Position numbers and translations under genes: made by a program | The notes under the pieces: generated by a model | What the model saw: only the letters and a program-made list of their open reading frames with translations | Database searches by the model: none | What the model was told of the DNA's origin: nothing | Shown here: positions 880-39,337 of the stretch, in pieces | Position numbering within the stretch: position 1 is the first letter of the stretch | Layout of the letters: each line of letters opens with the position of its first letter | Assembly (NCBI GenBank): GCA_035291665.1 | Contig: DATDRP010000006.1 | Location: 74,961 to 138,960, forward strand | Direction of reading: 5' to 3' | DNA length: 64,000 nt | Origin: Patescibacteria group bacterium | GTDB lineage: Bacteria > Patescibacteriota > Microgenomatia > UBA8517

Positions 880-1027
880 TTGGATGCGTGATCGGCATGC
901 TAATGATAATTTTTAAGGTATTGACCTCGCACAACCTTACTTTTCGTTTTTTTAATACTATTCGTATACAACTCAAAGAGCGGTTTGCCGGGGTCATCAC
1001 CCCTCAAAAAACTGAGAAAGTCGGGGC

Positions 1028-1065
1028 TTGACATTCCTTTAGCACTCGTGGTACATTACTGCTAA
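1028..1065 (+). promoter_or_regulatory. Sigma70-like promoter with CIRCE-like HrcA operator
   Basis: -35 TTGACA at 1028-1033 and -10-like TACATT at 1052-1057. CIRCE is at 1039-1065: TTAGCACTC-N9-TACTGCTAA. The left half is 9/9 and the right half 6/9 against consensus TTAGCACTC-N9-GAGTGCTAA. Sits 90 nt upstream of hrcA. Confidence 0.55.
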
Positions 1066-1155
1066 TATCAGAGTAAAAGAGTGGAAAAGTAGAAGAATAT
1101 AAGATAAGTTTTTGCTTCTACTCTTATACTCTTACGCTCTTCAACTCTTAATCAT

Positions 1156-1890
1156 ATGTCCGACGCATTAACAGCAAGACAAATTCAGATTCTGAAGCAT
1201 ATTATTGATGAATACATCGAAACGGCGGAACCGGTTGGCTCTGAAGCTTTGGAGAAAAAATATAATCTTGGGATTTCCCCGGCTACTGTCAGAAACGAAA
1301 TGGCAGGCCTCATTCAAAAAGGTTTTCTGAAACAACCTCATACTTCATCAGGCCGTGTTCCTACACCAAAAGCTATGAAGTTGTATGTTGACCAATTGAT
1401 GGAAGAAAAATCAATGAGTATTGCGGAAGAGGTAAAAGCGAAAGAAGAAGTTTGGGATTCACGGGGGAATGTTGATCAGCTGTTGGAGGAGGCCACCCAT
1501 GCGTTAGCCGAACACACAAAAAGCTTGGCCGTTGCGACGCTTGATGCCTCAAACAAAGTTTGGCATGCAGGTTATAAGAATATATTTCACAGTCCAGAAT
1601 TTACAGACTCTTTGGTATGCGAATCTTTGTTTTCTTTGATTGAAGAAGTTGAAAGAATGAACGATCTTTTTTTTCATCGGGGGAATCCTTTATCACCGTT
1701 TGATTTGTTTTTTGGAGAAGAGTTGGGTTGGCAAAACCTTTCGCCGATGGGTGTAATTGCCACAAGGTTTAACCTTGGCACAAGAAGGGGTGCGCTCGGA
1801 GTGATCGGGTCAACCAGGCTTTCATATCCCCGGATTGTTCCGATACTGCGTTATTATGGAAATTTACTGGAGGAGGTAGCATCGGCATGA
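1156..1890 (+). CDS. hrcA: Heat-inducible transcription repressor HrcA
   Basis: N-terminal wHTH (LTARQIQILKHIIDEYIETAEPVGSEAL) and HrcA C-domain. First gene of an hrcA-grpE-dnaK arrangement. Its 4-nt overlap with grpE suggests coupling. Confidence 0.85.
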   Translation: MSDALTARQIQILKHIIDEYIETAEPVGSEALEKKYNLGISPATVRNEMAGLIQKGFLKQPHTSSGRVPTPKAMKLYVDQLMEEKSMSIAEEVKAKEEVWDSRGNVDQLLEEATHALAEHTKSLAVATLDASNKVWHAGYKNIFHSPEFTDSLVCESLFSLIEEVERMNDLFFHRGNPLSPFDLFFGEELGWQNLSPMGVIATRFNLGTRRGALGVIGSTRLSYPRIVPILRYYGNLLEEVASA

Positions 1891-2351
1891 AGAAAAAACC
1901 GAGTAAAGTGAATAAAGGAGAAAGAGTAAATGAAGAATTGGAACACCTGAAAAATCAATTAACTAGAGCGTTAGCCGATTATGACAATCTGAGAAAGAGG
2001 ATTGAGATAGAGAAAGAAATCTGGGTAAAATATTCAGGAGAGCGCATTATAAGCCAACTTTTACCGGTATTGGACATGTTTGAAGCAGCCCTTGCCCATA
2101 CCCAGGACCAAGGACTTGGAATAGCGGTTTCGGAATTCAAGAAAGTATTTTATGAAGAAGGGTTGAAAGAGATAAAGCCTGATAAAGGAACTGATTTTGA
2201 CGAAGCCATTCATGAAGCGGTAGAATCTGTTGAAGGCGGAGAGGACGGAAAAATTGCAGAATTGGTTTTGACGGGTTGGATGTATGAAGACGGAAGGGTT
2301 GTCAGATACGCAAAAGTAAAGGTGTTTGGAAAAGTACAAAGTGGAAAGTAA
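1887..2351 (+). CDS. grpE: Nucleotide exchange factor GrpE
   Basis: GrpE coiled-coil signature (LKNQLTRALADYDNLRKRIEIEKE) and C-terminal beta domain. Lies between hrcA and dnaK. Confidence 0.85.
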   Translation: MKKKPSKVNKGERVNEELEHLKNQLTRALADYDNLRKRIEIEKEIWVKYSGERIISQLLPVLDMFEAALAHTQDQGLGIAVSEFKKVFYEEGLKEIKPDKGTDFDEAIHEAVESVEGGEDGKIAELVLTGWMYEDGRVVRYAKVKVFGKVQSGK

Positions 2352-2378
2352 AAAGAGAAAAGTATAATTTAATGAAAT

Positions 2379-4346
2379 ATGGGAAAAATAGTTGGAATTG
2401 ATCTAGGAACAACTAATTCGGTGGTTGCTGTAATGGAAGGGGGTCACCCCAAAGTGATTCCTGCAGCTGATACCGGGCGAAACATCACGCCGTCGGTAGT
2501 GGAACCTGTTAAAAATCTTGTCGGAGATGTCGCCAAGCGCCAGGTTGTTCTTAATCCGAAAAACACAATTTATTCTATAAAGCGTCTTATGGGACGCCGG
2601 GTTGATGACGCTGAAGTTGAAAGAACCAAAAAGATGGTTCCGTATGAGATTGTTTCTTCAAAAGATAAAAACGCGGCGGTTGAAGTTGATGGTAAGACTT
2701 ATACTCCTCAGGAAGTTTCGGCAAGGATTTTGATGAAGCTCAAGAAGGATGCGGAAAGTTATCTTGGGGAGAGTGTTGACGCTGCGGTAATCACAGTACC
2801 TGCATATTTTGACGACTCTCAAAGACAAGCGACGAAGCAAGCGGGTGAAATTGCCGGATTTAAGGTTGAGCGAATTATCAATGAACCGACAGCTGCAGCC
2901 TTAGCATACGGGTTGGATAAAAAGAAAGCAGAAAAAATTGCCGTTTACGATCTTGGAGGAGGGACTTTTGATATTTCAATTCTTGAACTTGGTGATGGAG
3001 TGTTTGAGGTTAAAGCCACAAATGGAGATACCCATCTTGGAGGAGATGATTTTGATGAAAAAATCGTTGAATGGATCGTTTCTGAATTTAAAAAAGACAA
3101 TGCGGTTGACCTGACGGCTGACAAGCAGGCACTTCAGCGTGTTCGCGATGCTGCTGAAAAAGCGAAAATAGAACTTTCTGCAGCCGCCGAAACGGAGATC
3201 AACCAGCCGTATATAACACAAAAAGACGGAAACCCAATGCATTTGACTTTGAAAATGACCCGGGCGAAATTGGAGGATCTTGTTGGGGATCTCATTGAAA
3301 AAACAATGAAACCGGTTGAGGCATGTCTGAAAGATGCGAAACTGGATCCGCACGATATTGATGAGGTGATCATGGTTGGGGGAATGACGAGAATGCCCAA
3401 AGTTGTTGAGGAAGTAAAGTCATATTTTGGTAAAACTCCGAACCAGTCGGTTAATCCGGATGAAGTTGTTGCAGTTGGAGCCGCTATCCAAGCCGGAGTC
3501 TTGGGGGGCGAGGTTAAAGACATACTTCTTTTGGATGTAACTCCTTTGACATTGGGAATAGAGACACTTGGAGGTGTTGCGACCCCGATGATAACCAGAA
3601 ATACAACTATTCCTGCATCAAAGACAGAAACATTCTCAACGGCTGCTGACAACCAGACTCAGGTAGAAATTCATGTATCCCAAGGTGAGCGTCCGATGAG
3701 CGCTGATAATAAGGATTTGGGCAGGTTCATTCTCGATGGAATTCCGCCGGCACCAAGGGGCGTTCCTCAGATCGAAGTAACTTTCGATATTGACGCATCG
3801 GGAATTTTGAAAGTTACCGCCCATGACAAAGCAACCGGCAAGAGCCAAAACATTACTATCTCGGGCGCTGTGGGACTTTCTGATGATGAGGTCAAAAGGA
3901 TGCAGGATGAAGCGGAGCATCACAAAGCTGAAGACCAAAAGAAAGCTGAGAAAATTACTGCCAGAAATTCAGCTGATGCAATGGTATCTGCAGCTGAAAA
4001 AGCTCTCAAAGACGCCGGTGACAAAGCACCAAAAGATATCAAAGAAAAAGTTGAGGAAAAGATTAAAGGCGTCAAAGATGTTTTGGCAAAGGAAGATTCT
4101 TCAAAAGACGATTTGGAGAAAGCAACGAAAGATCTGTCGGACACCCTAAGTCAGGTCGGGCAGGCGATGTATGGGCAGCAACAAGCTGCAGGGCAAAGTG
4201 AAAAGAGCGAAGAGAAAAGCACGGAAGAAAAAAAGAGTGAAGGAGATGGTGAAAACAAAAAATCTTCAAAAGACAAAGATGAGAAAGCCAAAAGCCCTGA
4301 GCCTGCCGAACGGGTTGAAGAAGGAGAAGTTGTAGAAGAAGACTAA
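2379..4346 (+). CDS. dnaK: Chaperone DnaK (Hsp70)
   Basis: Canonical Hsp70 motifs: [26 protein letters not shown]. 655 aa with a K/E-rich C-terminal tail. Confidence 0.97.
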
Positions 4347-4349
4347 AAA

Positions 4350-4637
4350 ATGACAGATGACCTCGAAAACCAGGATTACTCCAGAATTTATATCCAACTG
4401 GGTTTATCAGAACAAGCTATAGAGAAATTAAAGCCTGAAGAAAAAGCCGCAATCAGTAAATTTGATAAAGCTGTGGATAAAAAAGAACGAAGTTTGGGAA
4501 GGGAGTTAACCCCCGAAGAGGAGAATGAGTTGGCAGGAACGATTGAAGGGGCATCTGAGGCAAGAATAAACTATGAAAAGTTTTATTCGGAATTAGCCGA
4601 CCAAGTCGATAAAACGGAGGGGTACGATACAAAATAG
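4350..4637 (+). CDS. Hypothetical small acidic protein (95 aa) inside the dnaK operon
   Basis: Intact ORF that starts 4 nt after the dnaK stop. No recognisable domain. Confidence 0.4.
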   Translation: MTDDLENQDYSRIYIQLGLSEQAIEKLKPEEKAAISKFDKAVDKKERSLGRELTPEEENELAGTIEGASEARINYEKFYSELADQVDKTEGYDTK

Positions 4638-4641
4638 CTTT

Positions 4642-4887
4642 ATGTCTCCGGAAAATTTAACCCCACTTGAATCGTTCAATAGGAAAAGAGACTTGCTCCT
4701 TGAAGAATGGGAACAGGTTCATGGAGACAAATCTAACTGGAGTTATAATTTAACCGACCGTTTTGTTGATGCTGTATTAAGTTCGGTAACTTATGAGGAG
4801 GGTCTTGCCCACAAACGTGACACTGATCAGTGGTTGAGAACGAAAGCGCTCGCTGTAAATAAATATAATCAATACCATAGAAATTAA
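4642..4887 (+). CDS. Hypothetical small protein (81 aa) inside the dnaK operon
   Basis: Intact ORF 5 nt after the previous one. No recognisable domain. Confidence 0.4.
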   Translation: MSPENLTPLESFNRKRDLLLEEWEQVHGDKSNWSYNLTDRFVDAVLSSVTYEEGLAHKRDTDQWLRTKALAVNKYNQYHRN

Positions 4888-4890
4888 CTC

Positions 4891-4945
4891 TTAACAAACT
4901 CCCCATAGATTTATATAATTAGCACTTGAGATATTTGAATGCTAA
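4891..4945 (+). promoter_or_regulatory. Second promoter plus CIRCE operator upstream of dnaJ
   Basis: -35-like TTAACA at 4891-4896, then a 17-nt spacer, then -10 TATAAT at 4914-4919. This overlaps CIRCE at 4919-4945: TTAGCACTT-N9-GAATGCTAA, 16/18 to the CIRCE consensus. Confidence 0.6.
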
Positions 4946-5105
4946 TTGCCGTCCTCTTAAAATCCTAGTATCCTAATATCTTAATATCATTCTGAAATAT
5001 GGTTGGAAAATCCGATTACTACGACCCCGTACTGTTCTTACTTGCTCCCAAGTACTACGTGCTTGCGTCGCAAGAGCGAAAATACGGGGCAGGCATTTCT
5101 TGACT

Positions 5106-5996
5106 ATGACAACAAAAAGTGATTATTACGATATACTCGGAATTAATAAATCCGCTTCAGCGGATGAGATAAAAAAAGCTTACAGAAAGCAAGCTCTTGA
5201 ATGGCATCCGGACAGACATAAAGATGATAAAGAAGCCGCTGAGAAACGCTTCAAAGAAGTTAATGAGGCATATCAGGTACTTTCCGATCCGAAAAAGAGA
5301 TCGGCATATGATCAATTTGGCCATCAGGCATTTGCTCCCGGTGGAGGTTTTGGCGGACAGCCTGGTACCGGACCATTCGGACAGCAATCCGGTCAGTATG
5401 GTCCTTTTACATACACTTATACAACAAACGCAGGAGGTGGAGGAAATCCCTTCTCCGGATTTGACTTCGGAGACCCTTTTGATATTTTCGAAAGCTTTTT
5501 TGGTGGGGGAAGCGGGGGATTCAGGCGTGCCCAGCAGCTTCCCCGATACAGTATAAAAATAGATTTCATGGATTCGATAAACGGAGTCGAAAAGAATGTT
5601 GAAATCGGCGGCAAAAGAAGGAAAATTAAAATCCCTCCGGGAATTGATGAAGGTTCAAGGATAAAATTTGATGACTTTATTTTATCGGTCAATATTGCTC
5701 CGCATGAAGTTTTTGAGCGTGACGGAGCGGATATTTATATGCGCTACGAGATTCCGTTTTCACTGGCAACACTCGGCGGGGAAATAGAAATTCCAACTGT
5801 AGAGACGCTTGTGAAAGTCCGTATCCGCCCCGGAACCCAATCGGGTACGATGCTTCGCCTCAGGGGGAAAGGTGCACCCAATTTACATGGACATGGCAGA
5901 GGTGATCAATATGTGAGAGTGAATATTCTGATCCCCGACAAACTATCCCGAGAACAAAGATCTGCGGTTAATGACCTGAAGAGGGAGGGATTATGA
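5106..5996 (+). CDS. dnaJ: DnaJ-like J-protein lacking the zinc-finger domain (class B/CbpA-like)
   Basis: J-domain with HPD ([33 protein letters not shown]), a G/F-rich region and the C-terminal substrate-binding domains. No cysteine anywhere, so there is no CxxCxGxG repeat. The listed ORF starts at a TTG at 5100. The ATG at 5106 gives MTTKSDYY. Confidence 0.8.
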
Positions 5997-6027
5997 CATC
6001 CTCCCCGTCTTGAAAGGCGGGAGGATT
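5993..6027. repeat. REP-like miniature palindromic element, copy A (ATGACATCCTCC plus GC hairpin)
   Basis: ATGACATCCTCC at 5993-6004 overlaps the dnaJ stop. The stem atcctccc / gggaggat encloses cgtcttgaaaggc. The same 12-mer begins copies at 15809 and 49496. Confidence 0.5.
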
Positions 6028-6177
6028 ACTTGAAATATCGAACAACTCTGGCCTCACAAGAATGTAATTCAAGAAGTAAATAATTCCATCTGACGGAAAT
6101 TAAAACAATTCGTTGTGTACGGCTCCCGTTTTTATATTCATGTCGTTTTTAATATTTTCAGTATTTTATATTCACTG

Positions 6178-6198
6178 CATCACTACATAGTGATGTAG
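6178..6198. promoter_or_regulatory. Palindromic 21-mer CATCACTACATAGTGATGTAG, copy 1 (downstream of the TrpR-like gene)
   Basis: Core CACTACAT-AGTG-ATGTAGTG is an 8-bp inverted repeat. An identical 21-mer is at 6752-6772. Confidence 0.6.
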
Positions 6199-6200
6199 TG

Positions 6201-6737
6201 TTAACGTTTTTGGTAGCTTTTAAACTCTTCCGATAAGTCTTCCCTTATCTTTCTATTTACTGCCTCTTTTTCTTCGACACCTTTAAAAAATTTCTCCAAT
6301 TTCATATTTTGATTTTTAACAATGGAATGTTCCACCAGAGTCAGAAGTACTTGTGGGAGTTGAAATTCGATAGGGATGCGTGGAAGTTCCTTAGGAAAAT
6401 CGTATTTAGCAGGTAACTTTGCGATTATTTTTCTGAAACCGTTTCCACCTTTTAAAAGCCAATTACTAACCTTCGCAACCGTACCAAAGCTGGTATGAAG
6501 TGTTTTAACAATATCTATTTGTGTTTCCCCTTTTAATAAAAGCTTTGCAATACGGAGTCTTATAGCCAAGTTTTGTATTTCCTTTGCTGTCAGAAGATCT
6601 TGAAGAAAATCGGCGGTATCCATGGCATTTCTGACTGTTTTAAAAGAATTGATTAGATCAAACATTAATTCCAGTCTCTCTTCTTTTGAAAACTTTTCCT
6701 CTCTTTTTATTTTTGGGTAATATGTTCTTCTTCTCAT
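6201..6737 (-). CDS. TrpR-like DNA-binding protein (YerC/YecD family) with a ~70-aa C-terminal extension
   Basis: The segment FLQDLLTAKEIQNLAIRLRIAKLLLKGETQIDIVKTLHTSFGTVAKVSNWLLKGGNG matches the YerC/TrpR helix-turn-helix core. Confidence 0.6.
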   Translation of the reverse strand: MRRRTYYPKIKREEKFSKEERLELMFDLINSFKTVRNAMDTADFLQDLLTAKEIQNLAIRLRIAKLLLKGETQIDIVKTLHTSFGTVAKVSNWLLKGGNGFRKIIAKLPAKYDFPKELPRIPIEFQLPQVLLTLVEHSIVKNQNMKLEKFFKGVEEKEAVNRKIREDLSEEFKSYQKR

Positions 6738-28684: not shown

Positions 28685-29074
28685 ATGAATATTTTAGGAA
28701 TTGATTTTGGAAAAAAGAAAGTGGGCGTTGCCATCGGGGATACTGATTCAAAATTAGCAGAACCTTTCAGGGTATTACGATATGAGGATATCAGGATATT
28801 AAGTGACAAACTTAAAAGAATTACCAATGAGTTGGTAATAGAAAAAATAGTTATCGGAATATCGGAGGGAGAATCTGCCAGAAAAACAAAAGAATTTGCT
28901 GAAAGACTCGAAAGGGTTTTAAAAATACCATTTGTCTATCAGGATGAAACTCTCTCGACCTTTGAAGCGCAGGAAAAATCAAGAGAAGCAGGCATTGGGA
29001 GGAAAAAGAGAAAAGCTATGGAAGATGCTTATTCCGCCGCAATTATTCTCCAGGACTTCCTCGACACCCTTTAA
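28685..29074 (+). CDS. ruvX: Putative pre-16S rRNA nuclease / Holliday-junction resolvase-like YqgF (RuvX)
   Basis: MNILGIDFGKKKVGVAIGD N-terminal RNase H-like motif. 129 aa. Confidence 0.8.
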   Translation: MNILGIDFGKKKVGVAIGDTDSKLAEPFRVLRYEDIRILSDKLKRITNELVIEKIVIGISEGESARKTKEFAERLERVLKIPFVYQDETLSTFEAQEKSREAGIGRKKRKAMEDAYSAAIILQDFLDTL

Positions 29075-39305: not shown

Positions 39306-39337
39306 TTAATATCTTAGTATCATAATATCGTAATATC
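39306..39337 (+). repeat. 4 x octamer tandem repeat (TTAATATC, TTAGTATC, ATAATATC, GTAATATC) immediately upstream of fusA
   Basis: Exact 8-nt period. It ends 10 nt before the fusA ORF. A related 3-unit array is at 4965-4988. Confidence 0.55.

Follow-up and report, generated by a model that had tools for sequence, protein, structure and literature searches.

The heat-shock locus described here lies in a 64-kb window (the whole stretch of DNA that was analysed, 64,000 nucleotides of contig DATDRP010000006.1 from a Patescibacteria group bacterium). A total of six genes were found at the locus, all on one strand and in the order hrcA-grpE-dnaK-ORF95-ORF81-dnaJ, where ORF95 and ORF81 are open reading frames (ORFs) for proteins of 95 and 81 amino acids that NCBI labels as hypothetical proteins of a 'Patescibacteria group bacterium'. 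The nearest relatives of the DnaJ protein all come from metagenome-assembled genomes of Woesebacteria, and about 75 Woesebacteria loci (named L005 and so on in the following) were fetched as a comparison set. Wherever the fetched DNA of these relatives extends far enough, the order hrcA-grpE-dnaK-...-dnaJ is kept. We consider it fairly probable that the locus represents the form that the HrcA/CIRCE operon (CIRCE, controlling inverted repeat of chaperone expression) takes in Woesebacteria, a group of the Patescibacteria or candidate phyla radiation (CPR), with hrcA, grpE and dnaK followed by a variable junction and then by dnaJ. Most of the locus is an ordinary chaperone operon of the HrcA/CIRCE type and current models are not overturned by it. 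The analysis centres on the small genes at the junction and on the leader of dnaJ, which contains a hairpin (Table 1).

Table 1. Features of the heat-shock locus, with positions in the window
Feature	Position	Strand	Description
Possible degenerate third hairpin copy	923-1004	+	between murJ stop and hrcA promoter; weak lead
hrcA promoter	1028-1057	+	TTGACA-18-TACATT with TG extension; 10/12 plus TG in promoter scan
CIRCE-1	1039-1065	+	TTAGCACTC-N9-TACTGCTAA; 2 mismatches
hrcA	1156-1890	+	244 aa, short form; Pfam HrcA 5e-17, TIGR00331 2.5e-53
grpE	1887-2351	+	Pfam GrpE 5.6e-30
dnaK	2379-4346	+	Pfam HSP70 1.7e-247; 85% identity to L085 DnaK
ORF95	4350-4637	+	acidic helical protein, isoelectric point (pI) 4.5; family motif LSxEE...LGRxLTxEE
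ORF81	4642-4887	+	apparent strain-specific orphan; predicted three-helix bundle
dnaJ promoter	4891-4919	+	TTAACA-17-TATAAT, 11/12; top sigma70-like match in 900-6300
CIRCE-2	4919-4945	+	TTAGCACTT-N9-GAATGCTAA; 2 mismatches; spans expected transcription start
TARTATC array	4958-4988	+	four tandem 8-nt units ending 10 nt before ATG 4999
Relic dnaJ start/upstream ORF (uORF)	4999-5103	+	34 codons; TGA 5101-5103, 2 nt before ATG 5106
Hairpin element 'B'	5023-5100 (stem 5025-5089)	+	core of 107-nt insertion; long imperfect hairpin
dnaJ	5106-5996	+	class B/type II; Pfam DnaJ 2.8e-28, DnaJ_C 1.6e-33; no zinc finger

Operators, promoters and the dnaK-dnaJ junction

Exactly two CIRCE-like sites were found in the 64 kb, against a chance expectation of 0.01 when up to three mismatches are allowed, and each of them overlaps or abuts a top-scoring sigma70-like promoter. 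Both sites deviate at two positions from the consensus TTAGCACTC-N9-GAGTGCTAA and therefore score 16/18 alike. The preliminary description of this DNA had rightly given 16/18 and an abutting TATAAT -10 box (4914-4919) for CIRCE-2, but it had ranked this site above CIRCE-1, whose right half it called degenerate. Neither the ranking nor the degeneracy holds, as the scores are equal and the right arm TACTGCTAA is kept in at least eleven Woesebacteria hrcA operators; this arm is a lineage-specific operator form and not a product of decay. The repressor gene itself is recognised by both Pfam and TIGR00331, and the window HrcA scores 181.8 bits against the latter, under the equivalog cut-off of 197.2, because the protein is about 95 amino acids short. 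The short form was also observed in other Woesebacteria (hrcA in L005-L026 and L168), where HrcA has about 242-250 amino acids against the 338 positions of TIGR00331; about 95 residues of the usual protein are absent and the alignment to the model falls into two stretches.

HrcA would repress two sigma70-type promoters through these operators. In the predicted arrangement, the hrcA operator overlaps the -10 box of its promoter, with the extended -10 element TGgTACATT sitting inside the CIRCE-1 spacer, and the dnaJ operator would cover the transcription start of the internal promoter, which looks like the classical repressor geometry. No terminator-like site was found between ORF81 and the dnaJ promoter and read-through from the hrcA promoter is therefore likely. 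The dnaJ promoter is probably an additional internal promoter rather than the start of a fully separate unit. Of the earlier proposal that dnaJ forms a separate HrcA-controlled unit, the near-consensus promoter with its own CIRCE operator stands, whereas the separation is at odds with the lack of a terminator after ORF81.

The gap between dnaK and dnaJ ranges from 4 nt to 5 kb in the relatives. A CIRCE before dnaJ was observed in none of the 29 loci with a gap of 136 nt or less as compared with nine of the 32 loci with a larger gap (Fisher p=0.002), and it occurs in four further loci whose fetched DNA excludes dnaK. The closest relative, L085 (DnaJ about 76% identical to the window protein), and L089 have the identical TATAAT abutting TTAGCACTT-N9-GAATGCTAA, both variant bases included, followed by a short leader and the dnaJ ATG. 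Positions 4885-5025 of the window are collinear with both loci, from the -10 box and CIRCE-2 through the leader repeats to the dnaJ ATG. The internal HrcA-controlled dnaJ promoter appears to be inherited, and its presence goes together with cargo genes that interrupt the operon. In a sub-lineage that includes the window, L085, L089 and others, dnaJ would have gained this promoter because the junction acts as a hot spot for the accumulation of foreign genes, which may uncouple dnaJ from the operon. The pattern points to an operon that keeps its regulation despite insertions, a CIRCE having been acquired by dnaJ precisely in those operons that are interrupted.

The cargo itself differs from genome to genome. 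A membrane protein, a NUDIX protein and a toxin-antitoxin pair were found at the junction in L085, and a VapBC-like pair in L006. In L009 (CIRCE 5755-5781) and L018 (5783-5809), a clpB gene of 720 amino acids with its own CIRCE just upstream lies between dnaK and dnaJ, which recalls the linkage of clpB to the dnaK cluster in Thermus. At least four other small-ORF families occur at the junction (L016/L087/L093/L133, L087/L101, L109/L111/L168 and L107/L117/L120/L135), the last of which we take to resemble the four-helix-bundle '23S rRNA intervening-sequence protein' family, and L087 carries two different small ORFs in tandem, as does the window. Finally, L091 (~575-601), L104 (~925-951) and L115 (~1160-1186) have a CIRCE before dnaJ that runs into the start codon, and in L091 and L104 its right arm ATGGCTGCTAA doubles as codons 1-4 of dnaJ (MAAK).

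ORF95, ORF81 and the small-protein family next to dnaJ

The two small same-strand ORFs that had been reported after dnaK are present, with gaps of 3 nt between the dnaK stop and ORF95 and 4 nt between the ORF95 stop and ORF81 in place of the 4 and 5 nt stated earlier. The codon usage of ORF95 is host-like (0.27 per codon against 0.31+/-0.10 for real genes). Word-indexed searches with ORF95, ORF81 and a three-sequence ORF95 alignment returned the query sequences only, and tblastn searches with both proteins, first of 24 and later of 75 Woesebacteria loci, had no match at E<=1e-3. Relatives were found when all ORFs from the dnaK-dnaJ gaps were compared with each other, which linked ORF95 to L121:195-500 and L122:3649-3975 (ORF95-L121, BLASTP E 1e-05 as a single pairwise comparison). 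An HMMER profile of these three sequences, searched against 1.84 billion representatives, then matched seven more small proteins of 88-114 amino acids, namely P0005 (E 2e-20) and P0006, P0007, P0009, P0010, P0011 and P0013 (E 3e-7 to 1e-3). The family has at least ten divergent members with identities below 30%, a pI of 4.3-5.6 and the shared motif LSxEE(R/K)...E..LGRxLTxEE.

The position of the family genes is highly conserved. In all ten other loci examined, dnaJ starts 1-25 nt downstream of the family gene; the distance to a class B dnaJ is 1-9 nt for all seven new profile proteins, 8 nt in L121 and 25 nt in L122, and the gene is probably translationally coupled to the class B dnaJ in these loci. 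The order in L168 is hrcA-grpE-dnaK-71aa-P0009-dnaJ-nusA. In L173 and L171, the adjacent upstream gene is not dnaK, and the association of the family is therefore with dnaJ. When a hidden Markov model of the ten members was run against 5,076 ORFs, the three best non-seed matches were all ORFs from dnaK-dnaJ gaps (p ~9e-6), which hints at a larger and fast-evolving superfamily. Comparison of the ORF95 family by hhalign with the small-ORF family of L016/L087/L093/L133 gave a marginal result (P 9e-4), and homology is not claimed.

Searches of Pfam, NCBIfam and PDB with ORF95 gave no significant relative. No Pfam family at E<=1, MerR-like families included, is common to the ORF95 members, and nothing better than E 0.017 was found in PDB. 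Structure prediction, which had been suggested as a check on both small ORFs, did yield AlphaFold2 (AF2) models, of which that of ORF81 is a three-helix bundle with a predicted local distance difference test (pLDDT) score of 74.8. A fold match was not obtained, as Foldseek against PDB with the two models returned generic helical matches only (E>0.7, the ORF95 model being of low confidence).

ORF81 behaves differently from its neighbour. No homologue of it was found in 5.8 billion proteins and the searches of Pfam, NCBIfam and PDB gave nothing significant. Its codon signal is weak (0.075), although still the best of the six frames. A 75-aa ORF occupies the same junction position in L007, and its match to ORF81 by hhalign is marginal (P 8e-4); homology is likewise not claimed. 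ORF81 thus looks like a strain-specific orphan with no apparent chaperone link.

We interpret ORF95 as a genuine gene of an undescribed family of acidic helical proteins of about 90-115 amino acids that are encoded almost always beside dnaJ. From gene adjacency, its most likely role would be that of a DnaJ- or DnaK-binding modulator or assembly factor, comparable to DafA or CbpM. The earlier suggestion that both small proteins are Hsp70-associated factors thus retains some ground for ORF95, whose family lies upstream of dnaJ in the ten other loci, and loses it for ORF81 with its lack of homologues. A different explanation is that the small ORFs are merely carried by a junction that tolerates or attracts insertions, or that they are selfish or mobile small genes, in either case with no Hsp70 role. 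The contents of the junction are indeed unrelated between genomes, as they include toxin-antitoxin, NUDIX and clpB genes, four-helix proteins like those of rRNA intervening sequences and three or more further families of small ORFs; dnaK and dnaJ follow each other without an ORF in between in 29 of 61 loci, and ORF81 is an orphan. Members of the ORF95 family, however, are less than 30% identical and yet still lie 1-25 nt upstream of dnaJ, they keep this position even where the gene next to them on the upstream side is something other than dnaK, and the host-like codon usage of ORF95 does not fit passing cargo either. The adjacency to dnaJ has survived long divergence and therefore points to selection, and we regard the cargo explanation as rather unlikely for this family.

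The leader of dnaJ and its hairpin

Two start regions were found in front of the dnaJ reading frame. Positions 4999-5025, ATGGTTGGAAAATCCGATTACTACGA, encode MVGKSDYYD, and a second start 107 nt further on, ATGACAACAAAAAGTGATTATTACGA, encodes MTTKSDYYD. The gene callers in four assemblies agree on the second, ATG 5106, as the dnaJ start, as against TTG 5100 in the open-reading-frame list. The first appears to be a former dnaJ start, because it matches the starts of relatives, keeps the CIRCE spacing and shares the TAATATC repeats. It is identical over 19-20 nt to the true dnaJ starts of L019 and L005 and collinear with those of L085 and L089, diverging after base 5025 into CCCCGTA...; its ATG lies 53 nt past CIRCE-2, where most relatives have 33-51 nt between CIRCE and the dnaJ start; and the TAATATC repeats precede it as they precede the dnaJ ATG of L085. 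Deleting the 107 nt restores the dnaJ reading frame, as can be read directly from the sequence. The idea that elements integrate into the 5' end of dnaJ and leave pseudo-starts behind dnaK in the relatives was rejected, as a second dnaJ-start-like (DYY) copy beside dnaJ was not found in other loci; the single pattern match (L090, 2962) lies upstream of dnaJ at a distance of about 1 kb. The CCCCGTA/TACGGGG pair, the CTTGCG-T-CGCAAG palindrome and the TARTATC repeats noted earlier are all present. The region before the dnaJ ATG is thus structured as described, but it is not a plain 5' untranslated region (UTR), containing as it does a relic start and a 107-nt insertion.

The TARTATC array is not exclusive to this leader. 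It was also observed at 39307-39337, where four copies end exactly 10 nt before the ATG (39348) of fusA, the gene for elongation factor G, and there is a weaker site on the minus strand at 28787-28801. Seven matches occur in the window against 0.07 expected, and the array is a candidate for a lineage-specific promoter (-10 array) or regulator site.

The DnaJ protein itself has a mosaic appearance. Its first 35 residues are 91-94% identical to the type found in L016 and L014 (overall about 70%), while the C-terminal part is nearest to L085, and the maximum-chi-square test placed a breakpoint near codons 41-53 with a permutation p <=0.005 in six of 15 donor comparisons. We infer that a recombination patch brought in the 5' end of a foreign dnaJ along with its preceding DNA. 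Recombination would have joined a 107-nt segment after codon 9 of the ancestral dnaJ, this segment consisting of a conserved hairpin of about 70 nt and a dnaJ 5' end that came from another Woesebacteria lineage and replaced the original one. The former start would survive with its upstream signals as a 34-codon uORF that reads through the hairpin. Translation of dnaJ would then probably occur by termination and reinitiation, by direct initiation independent of a Shine-Dalgarno (SD) sequence, or by both, and it is plausible that ribosomes initiating at the relic ATG could unwind the hairpin and reinitiate at ATG 5106. If so, the relic start and the inserted hairpin would make a clear example of recombinational 5'-end replacement that leaves a uORF behind.

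The two similar starts might instead have arisen within the genome. A tandem duplication of the leader was rejected, as the 80 nt before each ATG are unrelated. Local duplication of the own dnaJ 5' end, or its transposition with a long target-site duplication, by a mobile hairpin without any foreign allele would fit the inverted-repeat ends CCCCGTA/TACGGGG, the homologue of the hairpin in a different context in another genome, the perhaps second copy in the window and the duplicated segment of about 26 nt that flanks the hairpin. We nevertheless find this improbable, since the two start copies differ at nine of 26 bases (a shared serine, for example, is TCC in one and AGT in the other), it is the upstream, non-functional copy that still matches the near relatives, the right repeat is set apart from the hairpin end, with 16 nt (5090-5105) between the stem and ATG 5106, and dnaJ looks like that of a different lineage over its first ~45 codons. 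Scarcely credible is a programmed bypass of the type known from T4 gene 60, in which ribosomes from ATG 4999 would skip the 107-nt gap from a TAC-GAC take-off to a TAC-GAT landing site. Matching take-off and landing codons do flank a stable hairpin that starts right past the take-off site, and removal of the 107 nt restores the frame; no stop codon follows the take-off site, however, the in-frame ATG 5106 chosen by the gene callers already gives a complete J domain as an ordinary start, and nothing requires a bypass. Recombinational replacement of the 5' end remains the reading that we prefer.

The hairpin that forms the core of the insertion is more stable than its composition would lead one to expect, with a folding energy of -26.6 kcal/mol and a z of -3.8. 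A homologue was found in L107 at 4974-5052, in the intergenic region between dnaJ and nusA and hence downstream of dnaJ (blastn E 5e-10). Among 22 predicted pairs, four differ between the two copies by compensatory changes and one by a wobble change, and none is broken. The possible third copy is the best non-self match of a covariance model built from two copies (R1), with 12.3 bits and an E of 0.52 for the 64 kb or 5.9 for 0.72 Mb; folded alone, it forms the same outer helices at -16.6 kcal/mol and z -3.26. One strong and one weak copy are therefore counted in the 64 kb and one in 75 other loci (0.66 Mb). No clean target-site duplication was found at the hairpin and ARAGORN gave no tRNA-like gene there. 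Rfam gave no match on the whole window at the gathering threshold, and even at E<=10 neither 4860-5160 nor the intergenic region of L107 matched a family. Scans of viral contigs gave three pattern matches, all rejected by the covariance model, and none with a longer pattern.

Taken together, the element appears to behave like a conserved intergenic hairpin repeat. Intergenic hairpin repeats are known as repetitive extragenic palindromic (REP) or miniature inverted-repeat transposable element (MITE)-like elements. An imperfect palindrome of about 70 nt with conserved structure in different intergenic contexts of two genomes is similar to these, whereas the small number of known copies (two to three), the lack of a clear target-site duplication and the absence of any associated transposase seen are unlike them. 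It is a new conserved RNA or DNA element to look for in other CPR genomes.

Two further features were observed around the L107 copy. Immediately 3' of it (5040-5130) lies a stretch of 57-62% GC in a spacer of 15-35% GC, with three GGCAGGCA repeats and no Rfam match, which may represent a larger RNA or repeat that lacks annotation. A hairpin resembling a terminator, TTGGTGGGATTGATGCCCACC with a T-run behind it (L107 5379-5417), occurs between dnaJ and nusA in about 30 relatives at 80-93% identity and has no match in the window, where a trpR-like gene, a SNase gene and orf82 lie between dnaJ and nusA.

A structured leader before a heat-shock gene is shared with the ROSE and fourU RNA thermometers of heat-shock 5' UTRs, and thermometer-like control of dnaJ had been put forward as a speculation. 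The hairpin is far too stable for this, as it barely melts between 30 C (-30.6 kcal/mol) and 42 C (-23.6 kcal/mol), and it has no Rfam match. Some folds of the whole leader do pair the two start regions across the hairpin base, and ATG 5106 is predicted to become more accessible on warming (0.08 at 10 C, 0.52 at 42 C). The fraction of shuffled-upstream controls at or below the observed value is nevertheless 0.25 at 15 C and 0.58 at 37 C. The start codon is thus no more sequestered than with a shuffled upstream sequence, and the thermometer was rejected. SD-like tetramers precede four of 32 long ORFs in the window, which is below the background of 17.6% (start codons assigned crudely). Translation initiation in this genome seems largely SD-independent, and there is therefore no SD sequence to mask before dnaJ.

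The hairpin and uORF could still act together as a cis-regulatory RNA in a wider sense, be it a thermometer, an RNase III-type processing site or a uORF-dependent attenuator. Its conservation with compensatory changes in a second genome, its stability, the pairing of the start regions with the accompanying rise in accessibility and the uORF stop 2 nt before the dnaJ ATG are what such a function would lead one to expect. Apart from the shuffling, melting, Rfam and SD results given above, two observations make it quite improbable: the L107 copy lies downstream of dnaJ and not in a 5' leader, and close relatives manage without the hairpin.

Interpretation and comparison with known systems

It is possible, though rather less than probable in our judgement, that the ORF95 family is a CPR-specific co-chaperone that binds the zinc-finger-less DnaJ, DnaK or both, and that the hairpin could in addition be a new class of RNA or mobile element. 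The family would then regulate or assemble the Hsp70 machine in parallel to DafA and CbpM while being unrelated to them in sequence, and the hairpin class would shape the boundaries of heat-shock operons in these genomes. CPR bacteria have tiny genomes and a poorly understood proteostasis, and a small protein genetically tied to DnaJ is a concrete and testable candidate for a lineage-specific Hsp70 cofactor.

Several points weigh against this interpretation and against parts of the scheme for the locus. The link between the ORF95 family and the chaperones is drawn from synteny. About half of the Woesebacteria loci carry no ORF between dnaK and dnaJ, and the ORF95 protein must therefore be accessory; unrelated small ORFs gather at the junction too, so that the adjacency could stem from an insertion hot spot and not from a function. 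In the window itself, ORF81 and a promoter lie between ORF95 and dnaJ, an arrangement that no other family member shows, and the all-helical ORF95 AF2 model is of low confidence (pLDDT 65). The hairpin is known in two secure copies, the covariation having been counted on two sequences. As for the recombination, the donors for the mosaic test were picked post hoc for 5' similarity, which makes the p-values optimistic, and a donor with the hairpin in front of dnaJ (hairpin-ATGACAACAAAAAGT...) was not found. Promoter use, HrcA binding and uORF translation are likewise predictions.

The operon can be compared with that of the Bacillus subtilis type, in which hrcA, grpE, dnaK and dnaJ are under HrcA/CIRCE control. 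The gene order, a repressor encoded by the first gene and a CIRCE that overlaps a sigma70-type promoter are common to both. On the other hand, the window has a second CIRCE-bearing promoter directly before dnaJ, the dnaK-dnaJ junction is variable, HrcA is about 100 amino acids shorter in Woesebacteria, the hrcA operator has the conserved variant right arm TACTGCTAA and the dnaJ gene is of class B and not of class A.

The DnaJ protein agrees with its earlier description in having a J domain, a glycine/phenylalanine-rich (G/F-rich) stretch, C-terminal domains and no cysteine, and the HPD motif is present (WHPDRH). All 66 Woesebacteria DnaJ orthologues have 281-308 amino acids and no more than one cysteine, with none at all in 64 of them, which makes the zinc-finger-less DnaJ a lineage-wide state and not a peculiarity of this locus. 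The class B assignment is sound, while the label 'CbpA-like' is imprecise: the NCBIfam CbpA model NF007618 scores 103 bits against a cut-off of 403, so that a CbpA equivalog was rejected, and the scores with the DnaJ models are much higher. Among solved structures, the best relatives are those of Thermus thermophilus DnaJ2 (6psi, E 2e-49; 4j80, E 7e-47), with both the J and the C-terminal domains aligned. The window protein appears to be a lineage-typical class B J-protein of the Thermus type, and this is the only J-protein found at the Woesebacteria hrcA-grpE-dnaK locus.

Two known systems combine such a J-protein with a small modulator. In the CbpA-CbpM pair of E. coli, a class B J-protein has an adjacent gene for a modulator of about 100 amino acids (PMC3125180), and adjacency to a class B dnaJ was likewise found for the ORF95 family. 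The cbpM gene, however, lies on the opposite side of the J-protein gene from the position of the ORF95 family, and homology to the MerR-like CbpM was found neither in sequence, where no ORF95 member has a MerR-like Pfam match at E<=1, nor in fold, where the all-helical ORF95 model is of low confidence. T. thermophilus DnaJ, a type II protein without zinc finger, serves as a co-chaperone in the full sense and assembles with DnaK and the small factor DafA into a DnaK3-DnaJ3-DafA3 complex (PMC3727329). DafA has been described as an analogue of CbpM, the 11-kDa modulator of CbpA (PMC3125180). The dafA gene lies downstream of dnaJ whereas the ORF95-family genes lie upstream, and ORF95 is likened to DafA by gene adjacency and possible role, not by sequence. 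Common to the Thermus and Woesebacteria clusters are a main DnaJ of type II with about 280-300 amino acids and a small gene beside dnaJ in the chaperone cluster.

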